A model generated the notes under the pieces. That model was not told where the DNA came from and did no database searches. It saw only the letters and a list, made by a program, of their open reading frames with translations. From a bacterium (GTDB lineage Bacteria > Krumholzibacteriota > Krumholzibacteriia > JACNKJ01): a DNA stretch of 60,847 bases. Numbering within the stretch: the first letter of the stretch is position 1; every line of letters begins with the position of its first letter. A program made the translations under genes and the position numbers. Location: assembly GCA_016873475.1 (NCBI GenBank), contig VGXI01000002.1:1-60847 (forward strand), in the 5' to 3' direction. Below are positions 11,215 to 48,697 of this stretch, piece after piece.

Positions 11215-12389
11215 TGGCCGGTCTGCGCATCGCCCTCTTCTCCCGTTCGACGCCGGCGCACTTCGCCGCCGGCGGCATGGAGCGCCACACCGACCAGCTC
11301 GCGCGCGGCCTGGCGCGGCGCGGCCACGCGGTCACCCTCTTCACGACCGCGCTGCCGCCCGGTGGCGCGCCGGATGTCGAGGAGGCCGGCCTCGAGTTGC
11401 GCTACCTGGCCGGGACGCGGCCTGGCGTCTACGGTGGCGGCTACTGGCCGCGTGCACGCGCGGCCTTCGCCGACGCGCGGCGCCGGCGACCCTTCGATGC
11501 GATCCTCTCGCAGAGCGCGGGCGCCTGGGGTGTCCTCGATCTGCCGGCAAGCGCTCGCCCAGCTTGCCTGGCCGTGCTGCATGGGAATCCCCGCGCCGAG
11601 ATGGCGACTGCCTGGCGCAGCGCCCCCTGGCACCCGAAGACTTGGGCGCGGACGGCCATCCTCCTGGAGCAGCACTTCCAAACCCGCCGCCGGCTGCCGC
11701 AGTGCGCCGGACTGGTGGCCGTCTCGTCGGAGCTCGGCGAGCGCCTAAGGCGGGAGTTCCCCGGGCAAGTCCGGGGATTGCGCGTCATTCCCAACGGCAT
11801 CGCCATCGACGCCTATCGCCAGGCCTCGCCAGCGGAAGGTCAGCGGGTGCTCTACACGGGTCGAGTGATTGCCGCCAAGGGCGTCTTCGTGCTGGTCGAC
11901 GCCTTTGCCGCGATCGCCGGCGCCTACCCGGACGCCCGACTGCGGATCATCGGCGACGGCCAGCTCACGGCGCTCCGGCGGCGCGTTGCGCGGTGGGGAT
12001 TGACGGCGCGGGTCGAGATCGTCGGCGCCGTGCCTCATGCGCAAATCGCGGGCGAGCTGGCAGCCGGCGCGCTCTTCGTGCTGCCGACGCAGTGCACGGA
12101 AGGCCTGCCCCTGGGCATGCTCGAGGCAATGGCGAGCGGCTTGCCCGTGGTGGCAATTGCGCGCGGGGGCATCGCCGAAGTCCTTCGCGGGGACAACGGC
12201 GGCGTTCTCCTTGCGCCGGCGGCGGCCGATGCGCGCAGCTTGGCGCGCGCGCTCGGCGACCTGTTCGCAGCCCCCGCGGAGCGCGAGCGCTTGGGGCGGG
12301 CGGCGCGGCAGCGCATCGAGACGGCCTACAGCGAAACGGCGATGTTGGCCGCCTACGAATCCTGGCTCTGCGAACTAGCGGGCGCCTAG
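11214..12389 (+). CDS. Glycosyltransferase family 4
   Basis: MAGLRIALFSRSTPAHFAAGGMERHTDQLARGLARRGH... from ATG 11214 (TGATG overlap). EGLPLGMLEAMASGLPVVA motif. Confidence 0.88.
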   Translation: MAGLRIALFSRSTPAHFAAGGMERHTDQLARGLARRGHAVTLFTTALPPGGAPDVEEAGLELRYLAGTRPGVYGGGYWPRARAAFADARRRRPFDAILSQSAGAWGVLDLPASARPACLAVLHGNPRAEMATAWRSAPWHPKTWARTAILLEQHFQTRRRLPQCAGLVAVSSELGERLRREFPGQVRGLRVIPNGIAIDAYRQASPAEGQRVLYTGRVIAAKGVFVLVDAFAAIAGAYPDARLRIIGDGQLTALRRRVARWGLTARVEIVGAVPHAQIAGELAAGALFVLPTQCTEGLPLGMLEAMASGLPVVAIARGGIAEVLRGDNGGVLLAPAAADARSLARALGDLFAAPAERERLGRAARQRIETAYSETAMLAAYESWLCELAGA

Positions 12390-12512
12390 CCCAGCCCCGG
12401 AATCCGGCATTGTCTCCGGGCGAGGCTGCGGCAATACTGGGCGGCGCGGGCTCTCGCGCCGGTGACGCCGGCGCGCGCATCCCGACTCTCAGGCCCCTGC
12501 GGGAGAACGCCG

Positions 12513-13178
12513 ATGTCCGACACGCGCGAGGCCGGCTACTACGGCTATGCTCGCCCCGATGTGCTGGCGCTGATTCCTCCCGGCTGCCGCCGGCTGCTCG
12601 ATTTGGGCTGCGGACGCGGCGAACTCGGCCGCCGACTCCAGGGCCGTGACGGCGCCTTGCGAATCACCGGCATCGAGTGGGAACCGGCGGCTGCCCGGGT
12701 CGCTGCCGGGCACTACGATCGGGTGTTGGTGGGCAGCCTGGAGGGCGAGCTGCCACGCCTGGTCGAGGCGGGCGAGCGATTCGATCTCATCGTGATGGCC
12801 GACATCCTCGAGCACACTGCAGCGCCGGGGACGATCCTCGCCCAGGCGGCGACCTTGCTGATCGAGGGCGGGCACGCCGTCGTGAGCGTGCCCAACGTGT
12901 CCCACTACTCGGTCGGCCTCGGGCTGCTCCGCGACCGGTGGGACTATGCCGAGCGCGGCATCCTCGATCGCGGCCACCTGCGCTTCTTCACGCAGCGCAG
13001 TTTCCGGGAGCTTGCCAGGTCCGCCGGTCTCAGCGTCCTGCGCGAACGGCGCAACTACCGGCTCTGGGAGCGCCGCGGTCTGCGCCATGACCGATGGGTG
13101 GCGATCCCGATCAGCCTCGGTCTCCTGCGGCATCTCTTCGTCTTCCAAAACCTCTTCCTGCTGCGCAAGGGGGACTAG
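12513..13178 (+). CDS. Class I SAM-dependent methyltransferase
   Basis: MSDTREAGYY... from ATG 12513 after GGGAGA. RLLDLGCGRGELG SAM motif, DLIVMADILEH. Confidence 0.85.
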   Translation: MSDTREAGYYGYARPDVLALIPPGCRRLLDLGCGRGELGRRLQGRDGALRITGIEWEPAAARVAAGHYDRVLVGSLEGELPRLVEAGERFDLIVMADILEHTAAPGTILAQAATLLIEGGHAVVSVPNVSHYSVGLGLLRDRWDYAERGILDRGHLRFFTQRSFRELARSAGLSVLRERRNYRLWERRGLRHDRWVAIPISLGLLRHLFVFQNLFLLRKGD

Positions 13179-37332: not shown

Positions 37333-38529
37333 ATGGTCAACAACAAGGCCTTCTATCGCAAGCTGGACGGGCTGCTCGGCAGCATCGTCGTCGAACGCAG
37401 TCCGCACCACGACCTCGCGCGCGCGGTCGACCAGATCGTCCAGGCCTTCCGGGAGGACCTCGGCACGATCAGCGGCCGGCTCTACGTGCTCCACGACGGC
37501 AGCTACTACCTGCGCCACAGCACGGCGCCGCTGGGCGAGGACCTCAAGGGCTTTGCAATCCCGGCGAGCTACCCGCCGATCCAGGCCATCCTCAGCGAAC
37601 GAATCGTCGCCGTCCACGAGGACTTCCCGGGCTACGATCCCGCACTGGAGCGCCGCCTTGGCGTCAGCAACTTCGCGGCCTTCGCGCTCGACTCCGGCCG
37701 CTATCTCGTCTCCTTCGGACTCGACAGCCAGGCCGAGGAAGAGGCCCTGCTCTTCGCGCTCGGCGCCATCCAGCACAGCCTCAGCCTGCGCCTGAAGCAG
37801 GCGGCGATGGTGGCGGAGATCAACGAGGCGGAGGCGATCCAGCTCAGCCTCTTGCCCAGCCATCCGCCGCGCTTCGAAGGTTTCGACATCAGCGCCCGCA
37901 CGCACGCCGCCGAGGCGACCGAGGTGGGCGGCGACATCCACGACTTCATGGATCTGGCGCCCGATGCGCTGGGCATCGCCGTCGGCGACGCCAGCGGCCA
38001 CGGCCTGCCCGCGGCCCTGCAGGCGCGGGATGTCGTGACCGGCCTGCGCATGGGCGTCGAGAAGGAGATGAAGATCACGGCGGTGATCCGCCGGCTCAAC
38101 CAGGTCATCCACGCGAGCCGCCTGGCGACGCGCTTCGTGAGCCTGTTCTATGCGGAGCTGGAGCGCAACGGGACCCTGCTCTACGTGAACGCCGGCCACT
38201 GCGAGCCGATGGTCATCGGCCCCGGGCAGGCCGTGGAGCGGCTGACCATCGGCGGCCCCATCCTCGGCCCGCGGGGGGACGCGATCTACCAGCGCGGCTT
38301 CAGCAACCTGACGCCAGGCCGCCAGCTCCTCCTGTTCACGGACGGGCTCATCGAGCGCCGGCGCGGCGAGGAGGAGTGGGGCGAGACCCGCCTCCTCGAG
38401 GTGTTTCGGGCCTGCTTCCACCTGTCATCGGCCGAGACGGTCGAGCGCATCGTCAGCGAGGCCCGCGCCTTCGGCGGGGCCGCGCCCTGGGAAGACGACC
38501 TCACCGTTCTGGTCATCAAGCCCGTCTGA
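37333..38529 (+). CDS. GAF-domain SpoIIE/PP2C-family protein phosphatase (RsbU-like)
   Basis: ORF 37333..38529, with its ATG 3 nt after the selenoprotein TAG. QLSLLP, GGDIHDF, GIAVGDASGHGLPAAL, LLLFTDGLIE. Confidence 0.9.
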   Translation: MVNNKAFYRKLDGLLGSIVVERSPHHDLARAVDQIVQAFREDLGTISGRLYVLHDGSYYLRHSTAPLGEDLKGFAIPASYPPIQAILSERIVAVHEDFPGYDPALERRLGVSNFAAFALDSGRYLVSFGLDSQAEEEALLFALGAIQHSLSLRLKQAAMVAEINEAEAIQLSLLPSHPPRFEGFDISARTHAAEATEVGGDIHDFMDLAPDALGIAVGDASGHGLPAALQARDVVTGLRMGVEKEMKITAVIRRLNQVIHASRLATRFVSLFYAELERNGTLLYVNAGHCEPMVIGPGQAVERLTIGGPILGPRGDAIYQRGFSNLTPGRQLLLFTDGLIERRRGEEEWGETRLLEVFRACFHLSSAETVERIVSEARAFGGAAPWEDDLTVLVIKPV

Positions 38530-38647: not shown

Positions 38648-39094
38648 GTGCTCTACTCGAAGGCCGCCGAGTACGCAATTCGCGCCATGGTCTATCTGTC
38701 CGAGCAGCCCCCGGGCGAGCTCATCCAGCTCAAGGATGTCGCCGAGAAGGAGAACATCCCCTTCCATTTCCTGGCCAAGACGATGCAGATCCTCTCGCGC
38801 AAGGGCCTTGTGCGCTCCCACCGCGGCCCGCGGGGGGGCTTCTGCCTCTCGCGCAAGCCGGAGGAGATCACGCTCTACGACATCGTCGACCCCATCGACC
38901 ACATCGCCAACTACGACGAGATCTGCATTCTGGGCATCGACGTTTGCAGTGACGAGGCGGCCTGCCCTCTGCACGATGACTGGACGAAGATCCGCGCCCA
39001 GATCCGTCTGACCCTCGAGGGCAAGAGCCTGGCACAGATGGTCGGGAAGCTCGAGGAGAAGCGCCGGATCGTCGCCGAGAAGGGGTTGCAGTAG
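38648..39094 (+). CDS. Rrf2-family transcriptional regulator with three-Cys putative Fe-S ligand motif
   Basis: ORF 38648..39094 (GTG, GGAGGA RBS). MLYSKAAEYAIRAMVYL..., Cys pattern CILGIDVCSDEAACPLH. Confidence 0.92.
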   Translation: MLYSKAAEYAIRAMVYLSEQPPGELIQLKDVAEKENIPFHFLAKTMQILSRKGLVRSHRGPRGGFCLSRKPEEITLYDIVDPIDHIANYDEICILGIDVCSDEAACPLHDDWTKIRAQIRLTLEGKSLAQMVGKLEEKRRIVAEKGLQ

Positions 39095-39303: not shown

Positions 39304-39888
39304 CTAGGCCGGCTCCTCATCGAGGGGCCGGCCTTCCCTTTGCGCGCCCTCGACGCGGCGCAACTGGCCGACGAGATGCCCCAACTCGGGCAGGAGCAGG
39401 CGCTCGAGCCCGAGACGCACGGCCGCCGGCGCGCCGGGCAGCGCGACGAGCAGGCGTCCCTCGCGCAGGCCGGCGCAGGCGCGGCTGAGCATCGCCGCGG
39501 ATCCGATCTCCTCCCAGCTCAGGCGCCGGAAGAATTCGCCGAAGCCCGGCAGCTCCCGCTCCCAGAGTCCGGCGAGCACCTCGGGTGTGCGGTCGCGCGG
39601 GCTGACGCCCGTGCCGCCGGTCAGGATGACGGCGCTGCAGTCCACCGTGGCGAGGGCGCCGAGCACGGCGCCCTCGATGCGCTCCGGGTCGTCGGGAACG
39701 AGATGGCGCGCGACGAGGTGGTGGCCCGCCGCGAGGAGCAGGCGTTCGGCGAGCGCACCCGAGTGATCGCTGGCGCCACTGCGGCTGTCGCTCACCGTGA
39801 TCAGCGCCACGCCCAGGGCCCGCGGACCCTCGCGGCGGTGCTGCTGGCGCCCGGAGGCCGCGTCCGGCGGCCTCTGGCTGCTGCTCAT
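39304..39888 (-). CDS. moaB: Molybdenum cofactor biosynthesis protein, MoaB/Mog family
   Basis: MSSSQRPP... from ATG 39888 (GGAGGG RBS) inside ORF 39304..40059. ITVSDSRS, ILTGGTGVSPRDRTPE, ALPGAP. Confidence 0.85.
   Translation of the reverse strand: MSSSQRPPDAASGRQQHRREGPRALGVALITVSDSRSGASDHSGALAERLLLAAGHHLVARHLVPDDPERIEGAVLGALATVDCSAVILTGGTGVSPRDRTPEVLAGLWERELPGFGEFFRRLSWEEIGSAAMLSRACAGLREGRLLVALPGAPAAVRLGLERLLLPELGHLVGQLRRVEGAQREGRPLDEEPA
39307..39341 (+). terminator. Hairpin plus T-rich tract ending the candidate sRNA
   Basis: ggccggc-t-cctc 39307-39318 pairs with gagg-g-gccggcc 39322-39333 (12 pairs including one G-U, 3-nt loop), followed by TTCCCTTT. It lies inside the 3' end of the convergent moaB CDS. 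Confidence 0.45.
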
Positions 39889-39950
39889 GGCACCCTCCCC
39901 GGCCGCACTTGCGGCTCGCCGCCCGCGAGGATACCCTGGACCGCGCCCGA

Positions 39951-41057
39951 ATGCCAGCCGAGGTGCCCGTGTCCTTCCCCCGCCGCGACCGCGCCCTGCG
40001 CCGCCTCCTCCTGGCCTGGTTCGACCGGGGGCGCCGGCCGCTGCCCTGGCGGGATGCACCCACGCCCTACCGCGTCTGGATCTCGGAGATCATGCTGCAG
40101 CAGACGCAGGTCGCGACCGCCATTCCCTACTTCGAGCGCTTCGTCGCCCGTTTTCCGGATCTCGCGAGCCTTGCTGCGGCCGAGGAGGAGGAGCTGCTCG
40201 CGCACTGGAGCGGCCTGGGCTACTACTCGCGGGCGCGCAACCTGCTGGCGGCGGCGCGTCAGCTGCAGGCCACAGGCGGCGCGCTGCCGGCGGACCCGGC
40301 TGCGCTCGTCGCGCTGCCGGGCGTGGGCCGCTACACGGCCGGCGCCGTCGCCAGCATTGCCTTCGGGCAGCGAGTGTCCGCGCTGGACGGCAACGGCATC
40401 CGTCTGCTCACGCGCCTCGAGGCCTGGGCCGGCGATCCCCGCCGCGCTCCCCTCGCGGGAAGACTCTGGGCCCGTCTCGACGCGCTCGTGGACTGCGCGC
40501 GCCCCGGTGACCTCAACCAGGCGGTCATGGAGCTCGCCGCCCGCGTCTGCCGCCCGCGCGCGCCGCGCTGCGGGGACTGCCCGCTCGCAGCGCTCTGCTG
40601 CGCCCGGGCCGCGGGCCGGCCCGAGGCTTATCCCCAGAGGGCGCGGCCGGCGCCGGCACAGGCGCTGCGCGTGGAGGTCGGGCTCTTCCGGCACCCGGCG
40701 GAGGACAGCCGTCTGCTGCTCGCCCGCGGCGCGCGGCCCTTTCTCGGCACGCTCTGGAACCTGCCCTATCGTGTCGCGGGTGGCGCCGTGATCGCCGCCG
40801 AGCGCTGGCGCGCGCTCGGCCTGCGGATCCGCGAGAAGCGCCGCCTGGGCGAAGCGCGTCACGGTATCACGCGCTACGCGCTCCAGCAGACCGTGCTCTC
40901 GGGGATCGCCGAACTCGCCGCCGGCGAGCGAAGGGTCGAGTACCGCTGGGCGGCGCCTGCGGAGTTGGACCGCCTGGGGCTACCCGCCTTCAGTCGCAAG
41001 ATCCTGCGACGCTTCGGCCCCCGCGGCGAGGAGGGGGAACTTCTCCGATCCGAATGA
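39951..41057 (+). CDS. mutY: A/G-specific adenine DNA glycosylase
   Basis: ORF 39909..41057, ATG 39951 preferred. PWRDAPTPYRVWISEIMLQQTQV, GLGYYSRARNL, GVGRYTAGAVASIAF, Fe-S loop CRPRAPRCGDCPLAALC. Confidence 0.9.
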   Translation: MPAEVPVSFPRRDRALRRLLLAWFDRGRRPLPWRDAPTPYRVWISEIMLQQTQVATAIPYFERFVARFPDLASLAAAEEEELLAHWSGLGYYSRARNLLAAARQLQATGGALPADPAALVALPGVGRYTAGAVASIAFGQRVSALDGNGIRLLTRLEAWAGDPRRAPLAGRLWARLDALVDCARPGDLNQAVMELAARVCRPRAPRCGDCPLAALCCARAAGRPEAYPQRARPAPAQALRVEVGLFRHPAEDSRLLLARGARPFLGTLWNLPYRVAGGAVIAAERWRALGLRIREKRRLGEARHGITRYALQQTVLSGIAELAAGERRVEYRWAAPAELDRLGLPAFSRKILRRFGPRGEEGELLRSE

Positions 41058-41145
41058 GTTTGGCTCCCACCCCCCCTGCCGCTAGGATCCAGAGCGCGTG
41101 CCGCCCGCTGGCGGCGCCCCCAACCCGCGAACGCGAGGAGCGGCG

Positions 41146-41379
41146 ATGCGGCCCTTCCTTTCCCCGCGCCCAGCGGCGCTGCTGGTGCTGCTGATCACGC
41201 TCGCGCTGGCCGGCTGCAGCCTGGGCACCGAGGCCTGGGAGCGCGATCTGCACGCGGATCCCGAGATGGCGCTCGACCACGACGCCATCGACCAGGCGCT
41301 CGACGAGCACATCTACTTCAGCAAGGAGGCCTCCAGCGGCGGCCAGGGCTTCGGAGGTGGCGGCTGTGGCTGCAACTAG
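41146..41379 (+). CDS. DUF4266-family lipoprotein
   Basis: MRPFLSPRPAALLVLLITLALAGCS lipobox from ATG 41146. Characteristic end HIYFSKEASSGGQGFGGGGCGCN. Confidence 0.85.
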   Translation: MRPFLSPRPAALLVLLITLALAGCSLGTEAWERDLHADPEMALDHDAIDQALDEHIYFSKEASSGGQGFGGGGCGCN

Positions 41380-42655
41380 GCCGATCAGCGGCGCGCTCGC
41401 TGCGGCCTGCGCGCTCGCCGGCGTCAGTGCTCCCTCGCGCGCCGTGGAAGTCGAGACCGCCGTCATGGTCTACAGCGAGGCCGATCGCGTGGCCGCGCTC
41501 GAGCCGGTCATCCGGATGACGCACGCGCTCTCACCGACCCGCACGCTCGGCCTCAAGCTCGTGCTCGACACGCTGACGGGCGCCTCGCCCAACGGCGCCG
41601 TGCCGAGCACGCAGGCGCAGACCTTCACGCGGCCCTCGGGCAACAGCAGCTACACGGCGCCGCCGAACACCACGCCGCTCGACGACGCCTTCAGCGACCG
41701 GCGCGGCGAGCTCGATCTCAGTCTCGAGCAGCGCTACGGGCTCCTCACGCGCGCGAGTTACGGCGTGCACGGCTCGGTCGAGCAGGACTACCTCTCCGGC
41801 GGCGCCAGTCTCGTCATCAAGCGCGAGTACGATCGGCGCAATCGCCTGCTCACGCTCGGCCTCTCGGTCGGCTTCGACAGCGTGCGGCCGCAGGGGGGGG
41901 CGCCCGCTGCCCTCACCGAGATGGCGGCGCCCGGCGAGGGCGAGGACGATGATCTGCGCGAGGACGACGAGGGCGAGGGCGGCGGCAGCGAGCTGAAGAC
42001 GACCGCCGACCTCCTGCTCGGGCTCACGCAGATCGTCGACCGGAGCACGGTGCTGCAGCTCAACTACTCGGCGTGCCGGGCGAGCGGCTACCTGAGCGAT
42101 CCCTACAAGTTCGTCAGCGTGGTCCAGTCCGGGCTGGGCACGGCGCCGGGCGAACCCCTGCGGCAGCTCTACGAGGGCCGACCCGACACGCGGCTCAAGC
42201 AGAGCCTCTACGGGCGGGTGAAGCGGCACCTGGGCCGGGACATCCTCGATCTCTCGTACCGCTACCTCTGGGACGATTGGGGCATCCGTTCCCAGACCGC
42301 CGAGCTGCACTACCACCTGCGCGCCTGGGAAGCGCTGGGCATCGAGCCGCAGTTGCGGTGGTACACGCAGACGGCGGCCGATTTCTATCGGCACAGCCTG
42401 GTCGACGGCGAGGTGCTGCCGGCCGACGCCTCCGCCGACCCGCGCCTGGCCGCCCTCACGGCCTGGACCTACGGTCTCAAGCTGCGGCACCGGCTCGCGA
42501 GCGGCCACGAGCTCAGCCTGCGCGGTGAACTCTACCGGCAGGGTGGCGAGGACCATCCCGCCGACGCCATCGGCCAGCTCCGCCGGCAGGACCTCTTCCC
42601 CGACCTCGAGGCCTTCATGATCCAGCTGGCCTACCGCTTCGACTTCACGCCCTGA
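41357..42655 (+). CDS. DUF3570-family (predicted outer-membrane) protein carrying a DTLTGAS motif
   Basis: ORF 41357..42655 (GTG start, overlaps the DUF4266 gene by 23 nt). Family assigned from overall pattern and the conserved DUF4266/ApbE neighbourhood (memory). Motif at codons 71-77 = nt 41567-41587. Confidence 0.8.
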   Translation: MAAVAATRPISGALAAACALAGVSAPSRAVEVETAVMVYSEADRVAALEPVIRMTHALSPTRTLGLKLVLDTLTGASPNGAVPSTQAQTFTRPSGNSSYTAPPNTTPLDDAFSDRRGELDLSLEQRYGLLTRASYGVHGSVEQDYLSGGASLVIKREYDRRNRLLTLGLSVGFDSVRPQGGAPAALTEMAAPGEGEDDDLREDDEGEGGGSELKTTADLLLGLTQIVDRSTVLQLNYSACRASGYLSDPYKFVSVVQSGLGTAPGEPLRQLYEGRPDTRLKQSLYGRVKRHLGRDILDLSYRYLWDDWGIRSQTAELHYHLRAWEALGIEPQLRWYTQTAADFYRHSLVDGEVLPADASADPRLAALTAWTYGLKLRHRLASGHELSLRGELYRQGGEDHPADAIGQLRRQDLFPDLEAFMIQLAYRFDFTP

Positions 42656-42663
42656 GGTCGGCC

Positions 42664-43608
42664 ATGAGGGAGCACAGGGAGTCGTCGTCTCCCAGCCCCG
42701 CGCCGGGGGAGGCGCCGGCGGCCGCGGCGCTCACTGGCGAGCGCGGCGATGGCGTCTGGATCCTGCGTTTCGCGGCGATGGCCGGCCCCTGCGAGATCCA
42801 GCTCGCGCTGGCCGACGGGGAGGAGGCGACGGCCCTCGGGCGCGCGGCAGCGGCGGAAGCCTGGCGCATCGAAGCCAAGTACAGCCGCTACCGGGCGGAC
42901 AGCGCCGTCTCGCGGATCAACGCGGCAGGCGGCGCGCCGATCGCCGTGGATGCGGAAACCGCCGGGCTGCTCGACCTTGCCGCCCGCTGCCACGAGTTGA
43001 GCGGGGGGCTCTTCGATGTCACGGCCGGCGTGCTGCGCCGGGTCTGGCGCTTCGATGGCGAGGGTCGACTGCCCCCGCGGGCCCAGGTGAAAGCGCTGCT
43101 GCCCCTCGTGGGCTGGGAGAAGCTGCGCTGGGAGCCACCCACGCTCACGCTGCCGGCCGGGATGGAGATCGATCTCGGCGGTCTCGGCAAGGAGTACGCG
43201 GTCGATCGCTGCCTGGCCCTGATCGGAGCCTGCACGGCGGCGCCCTGCCTCGTCAACTTCGGGGGCGACCTGCGCGTGAGCGGACCGCGGGCCGGCGAGC
43301 GGCCCTGGCGCGTCGCGCTCGAGGACCCCGCGCGGCCCGAGACGCCGCTCCTGCGTCTGGATCTGCGCCGCGGTGCGCTCGCGACCAGCGGCGATAGCCG
43401 TCGGTTCCTGCTCCACCGCGGCCGCCGCTACGCGCACGTGCTCAACCCGCATACCGGTTGGCCGGTGAGCGGCGCGCCGCGCTCGGTGAGCGTCGCCGCG
43501 CCGAGTTGCCTCGAGGCCGGCCTCCACGCGACGCTCGCCCTGCTGCATGGCCGACGCGCCGCGGCCTATCTCGCGGCTCAGGGCCATCGCCACTGGATCG
43601 TGGCCTAG
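42664..43608 (+). CDS. apbE: FAD:protein FMN transferase
   Basis: ORF 42664..43608. YSRYRADSAVSRIN, GGLFDVTAG, IDLGGLGKEYAVDR. Confidence 0.9.
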   Translation: MREHRESSSPSPAPGEAPAAAALTGERGDGVWILRFAAMAGPCEIQLALADGEEATALGRAAAAEAWRIEAKYSRYRADSAVSRINAAGGAPIAVDAETAGLLDLAARCHELSGGLFDVTAGVLRRVWRFDGEGRLPPRAQVKALLPLVGWEKLRWEPPTLTLPAGMEIDLGGLGKEYAVDRCLALIGACTAAPCLVNFGGDLRVSGPRAGERPWRVALEDPARPETPLLRLDLRRGALATSGDSRRFLLHRGRRYAHVLNPHTGWPVSGAPRSVSVAAPSCLEAGLHATLALLHGRRAAAYLAAQGHRHWIVA

Positions 43609-43795
43609 GCCGCGCCGGCCGGGCGAGGAGAGCCACGGTACCCCCTCGGCGAGGCGCGGGCGGCGCCCAGGCCGAAGGCGACGGCGGCGACCCACCGCGC
43701 CTCGCCTGTGGCAGCCTCGACAGCGAGCAGCTGGTCCTGCTAAGCTTGGAACGCCAGCTGAGCCTCGGCTGCCGCCGCTCGCGAAAGGATGCCCG

Positions 43796-45442
43796 ATGAG
43801 ACCGCGACTTGCCGCCTGCCTCGGCCTGTTCACCGTGCTGGTCCCCACTGCGCTGCCCGCGGGCGAACTGCACCCGGGCCTGCGCGAACGCCTGGCCCAG
43901 GCGCCGGCCGGCGCGACCCTGCCCGTGATCCTGCACCTGGAGGCACAGCTCGACCTGCGGCCCTACACGGGGCGCGACGCGGCCGGCCAGCTCATTCGCG
44001 ATCTGCAGGCGCTGGCCGCCCAGAGCCAGGCGCCCCTGCTCGCCGCCCTCGCCGATCGCGGCCTGGCGGTCGGGGCGAGACCCTTCTGGATCGACAACTG
44101 TATCGCCCTGCGGGCCACGCCGGCACAAATCGAGGCTCTGCGTGCGCTTCCCGGCCTGGCACGGCTCGACTACGACGAGCCGGTAGTGGGCGAGTTCGCC
44201 CTGCCCGCTGAGGGCGGGCGCACGCCGGTCTGGAGCCAGGTGATCATCCGGGCGCCGGAGGTCTGGAGCGCCCACGGCCTGGACGGCAGCGGCATCGTGC
44301 TGGGCTCCATGGACACGGGCGTGGACATTGGCCATCCGGCCCTGGCCGGCAAGTGGCGCGGCGGCGACAACTCCTGGCTCGATCTCGTGAACGGCCAGCC
44401 GTCCCCCTACGACGACCACGGCCACGGCACCCACACGATCGGCACGATGGTCGGCGGCGACGGCCTCGGCCCCTTCACCACCGACATCGGCACGGCGCCC
44501 GGCGCGCAGTTCATCGCGGTCAAGGTGCTGGACGAGGACAACAGCTTCGGCAGCACGAGCATCGTGATCGCGGGCGCGCAGTGGATCCTCGATCCCGACG
44601 GCGATCCGGACAGCGATGACTTCCCCCAGATCGTGAACAACAGCTGGTACTTCTTCAGCCAGACTTACGACGGCTACCACGCGACGGTGGCCGTCTGGCG
44701 GGCCGCCGGCATCCTGCCCGTCTTCTGCCTGGGCAACAGCGGGCCCAATGCGGCCACCACGCATCCGCCCGGCAACTACGACAACACCCTCGGCGTGGGC
44801 GCCACGACGAGCAGCGATCTCATCTGGACCTTCAGCTCGCGGGGACCCGCCCCGGCGGGCTGGGCCTTTCCGGCTGACGGCCGCAAGCCGGACCTCTCGG
44901 CGCCCGGCGCCTCCGTGCTGTCCTCGCTGCCCGGCGGCGGCTACACCGCCTGGAGCGGCACGTCGATGGCGGCGCCCCACGTGAGCGCAACGGCGGCGCT
45001 GATGCTGCAGGGGAACGCCGACCTGGGTCCTGCCCAGCTCATCGGCGCCTTGAATGGCAGCGCCGCCGATCTCGGCGCCGCCGGCTACGACCACAGCTTC
45101 GGCTACGGCCGCCTGGACGCCTATGCCGCGGTGACGGCGGCCATCTCGCCCTCGGCGGCGGATCCGGTCTCCACCGCCGCGCCGGCCTTGAGCGCCCATC
45201 CCAATCCCTTCGGCGAGCGTGTGCGTCTCGACTTCGCCTTGCCGCAGGGGCAGGCGGCGCGGGTGGGCATCTACGATCTCCAAGGCCGCCTCCAGCGGAG
45301 CCTCGTGGCCGAGGCCGCGGCCGGCAACCTCCTCTGGGACGGGCGCGACAGCGCGGGCCGTGCGCTGCCCGCGGGCCTTTACCTTGCGCGGCTCGACGGC
45401 GGCAAGACAGGCGCTGTCTGTCGCCTGCTTCGCCTGCGCTGA
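43796..45442 (+). CDS. Secreted subtilisin-family (S8) serine protease with FlgD-Ig/T9SS-like C-terminal domain
   Basis: MRPRLAACLGLFTVLVP signal peptide from ATG 43796 inside ORF 43547..45442. Catalytic triad contexts GSMDTGVD, HGHGTHTIGT, SGTSMAAPHVSA. C-terminus PNPFGERVRLDF...IYDLQGR...WDGRD...LPAGLYLARL. Confidence 0.92.
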   Translation: MRPRLAACLGLFTVLVPTALPAGELHPGLRERLAQAPAGATLPVILHLEAQLDLRPYTGRDAAGQLIRDLQALAAQSQAPLLAALADRGLAVGARPFWIDNCIALRATPAQIEALRALPGLARLDYDEPVVGEFALPAEGGRTPVWSQVIIRAPEVWSAHGLDGSGIVLGSMDTGVDIGHPALAGKWRGGDNSWLDLVNGQPSPYDDHGHGTHTIGTMVGGDGLGPFTTDIGTAPGAQFIAVKVLDEDNSFGSTSIVIAGAQWILDPDGDPDSDDFPQIVNNSWYFFSQTYDGYHATVAVWRAAGILPVFCLGNSGPNAATTHPPGNYDNTLGVGATTSSDLIWTFSSRGPAPAGWAFPADGRKPDLSAPGASVLSSLPGGGYTAWSGTSMAAPHVSATAALMLQGNADLGPAQLIGALNGSAADLGAAGYDHSFGYGRLDAYAAVTAAISPSAADPVSTAAPALSAHPNPFGERVRLDFALPQGQAARVGIYDLQGRLQRSLVAEAAAGNLLWDGRDSAGRALPAGLYLARLDGGKTGAVCRLLRLR

Positions 45443-48088: not shown

Positions 48089-48697
48089 CTACTTCAGGCG
48101 CTCGCGGAACTTCGCGCGGAACTTCTCCAGCTTGGGCGCGATGACCAGCCGGCAGTAGCCCTGCTCGCCGTTCTCCGCGAAGTACTCCTGGTGATAGTCC
48201 TCGGCGGGATAGAACACGGTCAGCGGCTCGATCTGCGTCACCGCGGGCTGGCCCCACTCGCCCGACTCGTTCAGGGCCGCCAGTGCCGCCTCGGCCTGCC
48301 GTCGTTGTTCCTCGCTCATCGTGAGGATGATCGAGCGGTACTGCGTGCCGACGTCCTCGCCCTGCCGGTCCTTCGTCGTCGGATCGTGGATGGCGAAGAA
48401 GATCTCGAGCAAGTCCGCGTAGCTGATGACGGCCGGGTCGAAGGTGACCTGCACAACCTCGGCGTGGCCGGTCGTCCCCGTGCAGACGAGCTTGTAGTTC
48501 GGAGTAGCCACGCTACCGCCGGCGTAACCGGAGACGGCCGCCTGGACGCCTTGCACCTGCTCGAAAACGGCTTCCAGGCACCAGAAGCAGCCGCCGCCGA
48601 GGACGGCGGTCTCGGTCTTAGCGTTCATTGTATCGGCTCCTGTGCGGGGCGCCAGCGCCGTGAGGACGGCGAGGGCGAGAGTGAGGGGGCGGATCAT
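48089..48697 (-). CDS. msrA: Peptide-methionine (S)-S-oxide reductase
   Basis: ORF 48089..48697. GGGCFWCLEAVF active site, YHQEYF. An alternative internal start at ATG 48628 (AGGAG RBS) would remove the signal-peptide-like N-terminus. Confidence 0.92.
   Translation of the reverse strand: MIRPLTLALAVLTALAPRTGADTMNAKTETAVLGGGCFWCLEAVFEQVQGVQAAVSGYAGGSVATPNYKLVCTGTTGHAEVVQVTFDPAVISYADLLEIFFAIHDPTTKDRQGEDVGTQYRSIILTMSEEQRRQAEAALAALNESGEWGQPAVTQIEPLTVFYPAEDYHQEYFAENGEQGYCRLVIAPKLEKFRAKFRERLK

Follow-up and report, generated by a model that had tools for sequence, protein, structure and literature searches.

Gene organization of the DUF4266-DUF3570-apbE cluster

Positions 41146 to 43608 of contig VGXI01000002.1, a 60.8-kb stretch of bacterial DNA referred to throughout as the window, contain three genes on the + strand: these encode a DUF4266 lipoprotein, a DUF3570 protein, and an ApbE-family flavin adenine dinucleotide (FAD):protein flavin mononucleotide (FMN) transferase. 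A preliminary description of this DNA had named the three open reading frames (ORFs) and proposed that the DUF3570 protein, not an FMN_bind protein, is the substrate of ApbE. Pfam searches confirmed all three assignments. The DUF4266 gene (41146..41379, +) encodes 77 amino acids (aa) from an ATG and matched PF14086 (E = 8e-21; 75.2 bits, cut-off 27). The DUF3570 gene (41357..42655, +) encodes 432 aa from a GTG at 41357 and matched PF12094 over the full length of the profile (positions 6-427 of 427; E = 6e-115; 384.9 bits, cut-off 25). Finally, apbE (42664..43608, +) encodes 314 aa and matched PF02424 (E = 1e-66; 225.6 bits).

For the starts chosen in the preliminary description, the reported 23-nucleotide (nt) overlap of the DUF4266 and DUF3570 genes and the 8-nt gap before apbE are exact. 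The DUF3570 start is likelier GTG 41366, based on a GGAGG located 9-13 nt upstream and a database copy of the protein (P0001) that is 429 aa long. At GTG 41357, a GGAG abuts the start codon directly. Use of GTG 41366 would yield 429 aa and lower by three the residue numbers used herein; the overlap would thus probably be 14 nt, not 23 nt. The DUF4266 ATG at 41146 is preceded by a Shine-Dalgarno-like GAGGAG 8-13 nt on its 5′ side, and a GTG at 41098 could serve as an alternative start giving a longer protein. A scan of positions 40900-43950 found no promoter or terminator, such a scan being uninformative at 73% GC.

The cluster is another example of a published flavinylation system, trimmed here to three genes and one site. 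Meheust et al. (2021; eLife 10:e66878, PMC8238504) described orphan apbE genes adjoining DUF3570 and reported [S/T]GA[S/T] motifs conserved in 228 ApbE-associated DUF3570 proteins. In that study, the DUF3570 of Chlorobium luteolum was flavinylated on co-expression with its cognate ApbE (ABB24424.1, ABB24423.1). The usual cluster comprised ApbE, DUF3570, a thioredoxin-like protein and DUF4266, often with DsbD. The window matches it in these three Pfam families and their order, in the motif, in the CXC tail of DUF4266 and in the signal peptide of DUF3570. Thus, the proposal that DUF3570 is the ApbE substrate is correct, matching the experiments on the C. luteolum homolog, yet it was already published in 2021. 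Our search found no further paper studying DUF3570.

Conservation of the flavinylation site

The DUF3570 protein carries the flavinylation motif D71-T-L-T-G-A-S77 (DTLTGAS; 41567..41587, +) where the preliminary description had located it, with Ser77 (codon 41585-41587) as the predicted FMN acceptor. By itself, a single occurrence is at most suggestive: when the protein was shuffled 20,000 times, [ST]GA[ST] arose in 7.9% of the shuffles and D-x-x-[ST]-G-A-[ST] in 0.6%. The case therefore rests on conservation in the family, which was evaluated using a close alignment of 119 DUF3570 sequences, 43-88% identical to the window protein, and a diverse set of 136, consisting of 135 representatives of 50%-identity clusters and the window's DUF3570. 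The family comprised 1803 database proteins at E ≤ 1e-5 among 8000 candidates examined, and 1830 clusters at 50% identity at E ≤ 1e-3.

The site was strongly conserved in both sets. In the close alignment, position 71 was Asp in 115 sequences, positions 73 and 75 were invariably Leu and Gly (119/119 each), and position 74 was Thr (107) or Ser (12). Position 76 was Ala (101), Pro (12) or Ser (6), and the acceptor position 77 was Ser in 117 sequences and Thr in two. Beyond the motif, position 79 was Asn in 111 sequences and position 80 was Gly in all 119. The exact motif occurred in 101 of these sequences. In the diverse set, it began at the window column in 115 of 136, and nearly all others kept [ST]-G-[SGP]-[ST]. 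In the window protein, every motif position is intact at the family's one conserved site. The preliminary description had suggested checking whether conservation of the motif depends on an adjacent apbE. No such dependence was seen: the site was kept in nearly all DUF3570 proteins, including those of eight loci with no apbE within 8 kb.

No second conserved flavinylation motif was found in a search of the window DUF3570 and 254 relatives. The window protein has one exact [S/T]GA[S/T] motif only, and a second site of the C. luteolum type is absent from it. In the diverse set, exactly one motif occurred in 100 of 136 sequences, and second motifs were sporadic (columns 91-94, 79-82 and 260). SGNS (94-97) and SGGAS (147-151) were considered as extra sites and rejected: their Ser columns are invariant, yet the family consensus at these positions is no ApbE motif.

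DUF3570 as a predicted outer-membrane barrel

The preliminary description had proposed structural modeling as a check for a β-barrel, and such a fold was indeed obtained. AlphaFold2, run with the 119-sequence alignment, predicted an all-β protein of 16 strands forming a barrel after a signal peptide of approximately 29 residues (aa 1-29), the latter modeled as a short N-terminal helix (predicted local distance difference test, pLDDT, 91.6; predicted template modeling score, pTM, 0.86). A Foldseek search against the PDB returned outer-membrane barrels only (E ~1e-9, TM ~0.4), namely AlgE, OprD/Occ, the barrels of TonB-dependent receptors, OmpG and FadL. The range of these matches indicates a generic outer-membrane barrel rather than a specific family. 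In the model, the connections after even-numbered strands are all 2-5 residues long, and long loops of 19-35 residues occur only after strands 3, 7, 9, 13 and 15, the canonical outer-membrane pattern. All 16 strands are amphipathic, with a hydrophobic, variable face alternating with a polar, more conserved one, and 101 of the 119 sequences have an aromatic residue among their three C-terminal positions. Thus, the sequence and the model display the expected attributes of an outer-membrane barrel: a signal peptide, an even strand number, short turns with long loops, and an aromatic C-terminus. Based on the model, we infer that DUF3570 is a 16-strand outer-membrane β-barrel.

The motif forms the end of strand 3 (residues 62-78), and Ser77 falls in the polar, lumen-facing register together with K67, D71, L73 and G75. 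The preliminary description had held that burial of the acceptor in a transmembrane strand would speak against its proposal. In form this is partly what the model contains, Ser77 being the last-but-one residue of strand 3; the position does not refute the proposal, as flavinylation of the homolog is proven.

In 13 of the 16 strands, the half nearer the long loops was the more conserved one (p = 0.005). Similarly, loops L2, L3, L5, L6 and L7 scored 2.9-3.8 bits and the turns 1.4-2.9 bits, unlike in ordinary porins. This loop-side conservation suggests that a structured, conserved cap or plug may form the flavin site. The longest highly conserved stretch of the family is loop L2 (aa 79-107; 41591..41677, +), which follows the motif, is modeled with a pLDDT of 88-97, and contains the conserved residues N79, G80, A81, Q88, T89, F90, T91, P93, S94, G95, Y99 and P107. 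Loop L4 contains an acidic, low-complexity insert, APGEGEDDDLREDDEGEGGGS (aa 190-210; 41924-41986), where the model drops to low confidence (pLDDT 55-65), as it does nowhere else between the termini.

Features of the DUF4266 lipoprotein

DUF4266 possesses a signal peptide and a lipobox, LAGC, with Cys24 encoded at 41215-41217 and Ser at position +2; the mature protein would be 54 aa. In E. coli, the +2 residue guides lipoprotein sorting by the Lol rule. Among relatives, this residue was Ser, Ala or Thr in 74 of 76 and never Asp, so by that rule DUF4266 is probably sorted to the outer membrane.

The protein ends in GGGGCGCN (41353..41376, +), in which Cys74 and Cys76 make up a presumed redox-active CXC pair. 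The preliminary description had reported this ending and called it unusual. The ending was confirmed; it is not unusual, as the terminus GGCGCN was invariant in all 78 DUF4266 proteins examined, whose mature length was 53-55 aa. The C-terminal CXC was likewise found to be conserved by others, who noted that it may undergo redox cycling (PMC8238504). No conserved cysteine was found in the DUF3570 family alignment; the CGC pair would thus be the only thiol redox center of the pair of proteins, and FMN the only other redox center.

A dedicated ApbE subfamily without a signal peptide

The window ApbE matched solved FMN transferases, specifically TM1553 (PDB 1vrm, E = 1.7e-33) and Vibrio cholerae ApbE (PDB 6nxi, E = 3.7e-27). 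Its motifs A-T-S-G-D and Y-A-H258-V-L-N-P-H-T-G align to those of the solved enzymes, and the enzyme is intact. The second motif has the broader form Y-x-H-[VI]-[LI]-[ND]-P-x-T-G, with the conserved His258 encoded at 43435-43437. The score against the E. coli ApbE equivalog (NCBIfam NF007774) was 86.7 bits, relative to a cut-off of 498, which marks the protein as a family member and not an E. coli ortholog.

The N-terminus of the enzyme sets it apart. A subfamily motif, A-M-A-G-P-C-E (aa 38-44; 42775-42795), lies in the first strand of the fold and is preceded by 37 polar, Ala- and Pro-rich residues. No signal peptide was detected in the window ApbE (maximum 10-aa Kyte-Doolittle mean, 0.74), and no hydrophobic N-terminus occurred in 66 cluster ApbEs of the surveyed loci or in the 119 nearest database homologs. 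The latter were 276-347 aa, all but one being at most 320 aa. Across the subfamily, the motif M-[AG]-[SG]-P-C-E was preceded by a median of 21 residues. The maximum 10-aa hydropathy ahead of it was below 2.0 in every ApbE with a locatable motif and at least 10 residues before it; on the same scale, the signal peptides of DUF3570, DUF4266, MsrA and the redoxin scored 2.3-3.3. Neither a lipobox nor a twin-arginine motif was found among the 186 subfamily relatives. Three subfamily ApbEs chosen arbitrarily from other phyla were all encoded directly downstream of DUF3570. The ApbEs beside DUF3570 (window 42664-42795; loci L001-L084) invariantly contain M-[AG]-[SG]-P-C-E, with its conserved Cys at the start of the fold. 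We found no mention of this signal-peptide-less subfamily in the literature.

The lack of a signal peptide on the cluster ApbE suggests that flavinylation may take place in the cytoplasm, on the unfolded precursor before export. Cytosolic ApbEs are known to exist, and a linear tag of seven residues is enough for ApbE (PMC12052999). Where ApbEs acting on exported substrates have been characterized, they are lipoproteins of the periplasm (PMC12052999). One database protein, P0279 (717 aa), is an apparent single-ORF fusion of DUF3570 and an ApbE of the signal-peptide-less type. If real, it would bear on the site of flavinylation; as one case that is probably a read-through, it was not used as evidence.

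Gene neighborhood in the window and across loci

Gene context was surveyed at 80 loci from species-representative genomes of at least eight phylum-level groups, including Gammaproteobacteria, Zixibacteria, Eisenbacteria, Krumholzibacteriia, Latescibacteria, Gemmatimonadota, Ignavibacteria, Elusimicrobiota and a Bdellovibrio-like group. The order thioredoxin-like, DUF4266, DUF3570, ApbE was highly conserved. DUF4266 was present in 77 of the 80 loci, and ApbE was encoded immediately downstream of DUF3570 in 66. Of the 14 loci that lacked it there, six stop at a contig end, so that the proportion is 66 of the 74 that could be tested. A TlpA-like redoxin matching Redoxin, AhpC-TSA and Thioredoxin_8 was encoded immediately upstream in approximately 69 of 80, and DsbD/CcdA occurred within 8 kb in seven of 80. 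In approximately 25 of 80 loci (including L064, L048 and L074), the cluster is flanked by genes for an OmpR-type response regulator and a histidine kinase of the 2CSK_N/HAMP type, which suggests signal-dependent regulation in Gammaproteobacteria. Neither the regulator nor the kinase was found in the window.

The closest long relative, L081, has a DUF3570 that is 81% identical and is syntenic with the window. Its gene order is SpoIIE, Rrf2, MoCF, MutY, DUF4266, DUF3570, ApbE, S8 peptidase and LeuRS, with MsrA further downstream. By this synteny, the genes upstream of the cluster in the window encode a SpoIIE-type phosphatase (37333-38529), an Rrf2-family regulator (38648-39094) and a MoCF_biosynth protein (39304-40059, -). 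The last overlaps the long MutY ORF; MutY itself probably begins somewhere after 39909. Downstream of apbE lies a subtilase gene (43796-45442, +; Peptidase_S8, E = 4e-49). Its product bears a signal peptide and, at the C-terminus, a FlgD_ig-like domain, a type that serves as a secretion tail in bacteria of the FCB group. This ORF was listed from 43547, but its homolog in L081 points to a start at Met84 (43796). In L081, a gene for a 206-aa, secreted, Cys-rich protein without a Pfam match (12239-12859, -) separates apbE from the S8 peptidase gene; it is absent from the window, where a 187-nt spacer occurs instead.

A gene for a peptide methionine sulfoxide reductase, MsrA (48089-48697, -; PF01625, E = 4e-64), lies 4.5 kb downstream of the cluster, and its clear signal peptide (MIRPLTLALAVLTALAPRTGA) indicates a periplasmic protein. 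Iron-related neighbors of DUF3570 occur in different phyla, namely FeoB (L082, 1-1760), VIT1 (L083, 2164-2850) and, in the Colwellia group, a Cupredoxin_1 protein encoded beside a multi-pass membrane protein (L070, 10906-11352). The window sequence occurs in DNA sequencing runs from lake-water metagenomes, a search for RNA runs having found none, and its nearest named relatives are Krumholzibacteriia and Latescibacterota.

Comparison with other ApbE substrates and barrel systems

The established ApbE substrates, i.e., the FMN_bind proteins (NqrC, RnfG, PplA, NosR and PceC) and NqrB/RnfD, share with DUF3570 the sequence D-x-x-[ST]-G-A-[ST], with FMN bound as a phosphoester on the last residue. 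DUF3570 differs from them in three respects. Its predicted 16-strand barrel is unrelated to their small α/β domain or inner-membrane helices, its acceptor is Ser and not the usual Thr, and its probable location is the outer membrane. DUF2271, like DUF3570, was found through orphan apbE neighborhoods (PMC8238504), and like the window protein it has a single [S/T]GA[S/T] site, but DUF2271 is a small, soluble domain with no relation to DUF3570 in sequence or fold. The window ApbE lacks a signal peptide, as does the cytosolic ApbE of Klebsiella pneumoniae that flavinylates a soluble fumarate reductase (PMC12052999). However, the K. pneumoniae substrate stays in the cytoplasm, whereas DUF3570 has a signal peptide and is predicted to form a barrel.

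In the MtrAB porin-cytochrome and the LptDE plug-and-barrel systems, an outer-membrane barrel is paired with a small partner that may enter it. The likeness to DUF3570/DUF4266 is one of analogy only: here too a barrel is encoded beside a small partner, and MtrAB provides a possible precedent for passing electrons across the outer membrane. There is no homology to either system, the proposed centers are a single covalent flavin and a dithiol rather than hemes, and the interaction of the two proteins is presumed.

Three points were found in no paper and might be new: the predicted 16-strand barrel whose third strand ends in the flavinylation site, the loop-side conservation, and the dedicated, signal-peptide-less ApbE. 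The barrel fold is probably known to specialists, though undiscussed in the literature found. Meheust et al. treated the system as extracytosolic, mentioned no barrel and did not call DUF3570 a membrane protein; when produced in E. coli, the C. luteolum protein was mostly in the pellet of lysed cells (PMC8238504). A 2024 paper from the same group devotes one sentence to the outer-membrane localization of flavinylated domains, without naming DUF3570.

Proposed mechanism and alternative explanations

We consider it highly probable that the window cluster belongs to the known ApbE/DUF3570/DUF4266 system and works as follows. The apbE product would take FMN from FAD and link it as a phosphoester to Ser77 of DUF3570 (D-x-L-T-G-A-S), a reaction shown for the homolog. 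Most likely, the precursor would be flavinylated while still unfolded in the cytoplasm, and only then be exported by Sec and inserted by BAM. In the mature protein, Ser77 would face the lumen at the long-loop end of strand 3, where the conserved residues cluster in the model. The Cys-Gly-Cys in the Gly-rich tail of DUF4266 probably acts as the dithiol/disulfide partner to the flavin. For most relatives, the module would be fed from the cytoplasmic thiol pool by a TlpA-like thioredoxin, sometimes with DsbD; neither is encoded nearby here. As for the final electron acceptor, iron reduction or uptake is the best-supported guess, given FeoB, VIT1 and Cupredoxin_1 neighbors in some loci. The published proposal is similarly that of a hybrid thiol/flavin relay supplied through DsbD and connected with iron, VIT1 iron transporters being associated with 25 clusters (PMC8238504).

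A bolder version of this scheme can be offered tentatively, and we think it somewhat unlikely in its entirety: the flavin, installed in the cytoplasm and exported, would end up inside the barrel or at its far end, where the Cys-Gly-Cys tail of DUF4266 could reach it from the periplasm, creating a flavin/thiol path for electrons across the outer membrane.

Several observations weigh against these proposals. The supply of electrons is one. Unlike the published cluster, the window has no thioredoxin-like (Redoxin/Thioredoxin_8) gene, none being found in a six-frame translation of its 60.8 kb using a profile built from 70 cluster proteins, and no match to DsbD was found in the same stretch. Redoxin and DsbD were also absent from 21 kb of L081 (10 kb on each side of the gene). 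Based on the lack of a redoxin in both, the three-gene form is a lineage trait. The site differs as well: loss of flavinylation in C. luteolum DUF3570 required Ser→Ala substitutions at both of two motifs (PMC8238504), and the window protein has one. Within the barrel, strands 9-14 are only weakly hydrophobic on their nominally hydrophobic face, and only strand order and residue periodicity serve to place Ser77 with respect to lumen, surface and membrane. Finally, no precedent for Sec export of a flavin-bearing chain was found in the literature.

The strongest competing explanation retains the system but places flavinylation in the periplasm, before the barrel closes, through either the cluster ApbE exported by an unrecognized route or another, exported ApbE. 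The lipoprotein nature of the characterized ApbEs that act on exported substrates (PMC12052999), the published treatment of the system as extracytosolic (PMC8238504), and the eight loci without a nearby apbE, at which another ApbE must serve, all favor it. It is nevertheless somewhat unlikely, although slightly less so than the trans-membrane electron path. None of the 186 subfamily relatives has a hydrophobic N-terminus, a lipobox or a twin-arginine motif, the fold being preceded instead by approximately 21 polar residues, and no second ApbE was found in the 60.8-kb window. Moreover, the homolog was flavinylated in E. coli from a construct cloned similarly to the signal-peptide-truncated DUF2271 and was mostly pelleted (PMC8238504). 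A different question is what the module serves. Reducing power might go to envelope repair, through periplasmic methionine sulfoxide reductase, and not to iron handling. This idea is consistent with the signal-peptide-bearing MsrA encoded downstream of the window cluster and with five other loci (L020, L022, L027, L028 and L032) that carry Msr genes no more than 7 kb from DUF3570, and in other bacteria, TlpA-like thioredoxins and DsbD feed periplasmic Msr enzymes. We regard it as improbable since the link occurs in only six of 81 loci, at varying distances and on varying strands, and housekeeping genes (LeuRS, S8 peptidase) intervene.

Two further explanations dispute the nature of DUF3570 itself. 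It could be a soluble periplasmic β-barrel flavinylated on an exposed loop, as the weakly hydrophobic outward face of strands 9-14 would allow and as the published account, in not calling it a membrane protein (PMC8238504), would permit. This is very unlikely given 16 long, antiparallel strands with a strict hydrophobic-variable/polar-conserved alternation, the canonical turn and loop pattern with an aromatic C-terminus, best structural matches that are all outer-membrane barrels, and the insolubility of the homolog in E. coli. Least credible of all is an ordinary, porin-like channel whose motif is structural and unmodified, the adjacent ApbE acting on some other substrate. A single [ST]GA[ST] does arise by chance at the frequency given above, and the fold search did return porins and transporters. 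However, the motif column is conserved family-wide at every position of ApbE recognition (D, [ST], G, A, [ST]), the dedicated ApbE subfamily always adjoins DUF3570, the loops are more conserved than the turns, and flavinylation of the homolog was demonstrated experimentally (PMC8238504).

Implications

That DUF3570 is the ApbE substrate does not by itself change what is known; the window contributes one more example, from an uncultured lake bacterium. The wider interest could lie in the cell biology of this widespread family, in its barrel and its enzyme. If the substrate is indeed an outer-membrane barrel and its ApbE is confined to the cytoplasm, the questions become how a covalent cofactor reaches the outer membrane and what the flavin does there. 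A flavin/thiol path across that membrane, if real, would be a non-heme counterpart of the porin-cytochrome conduits.

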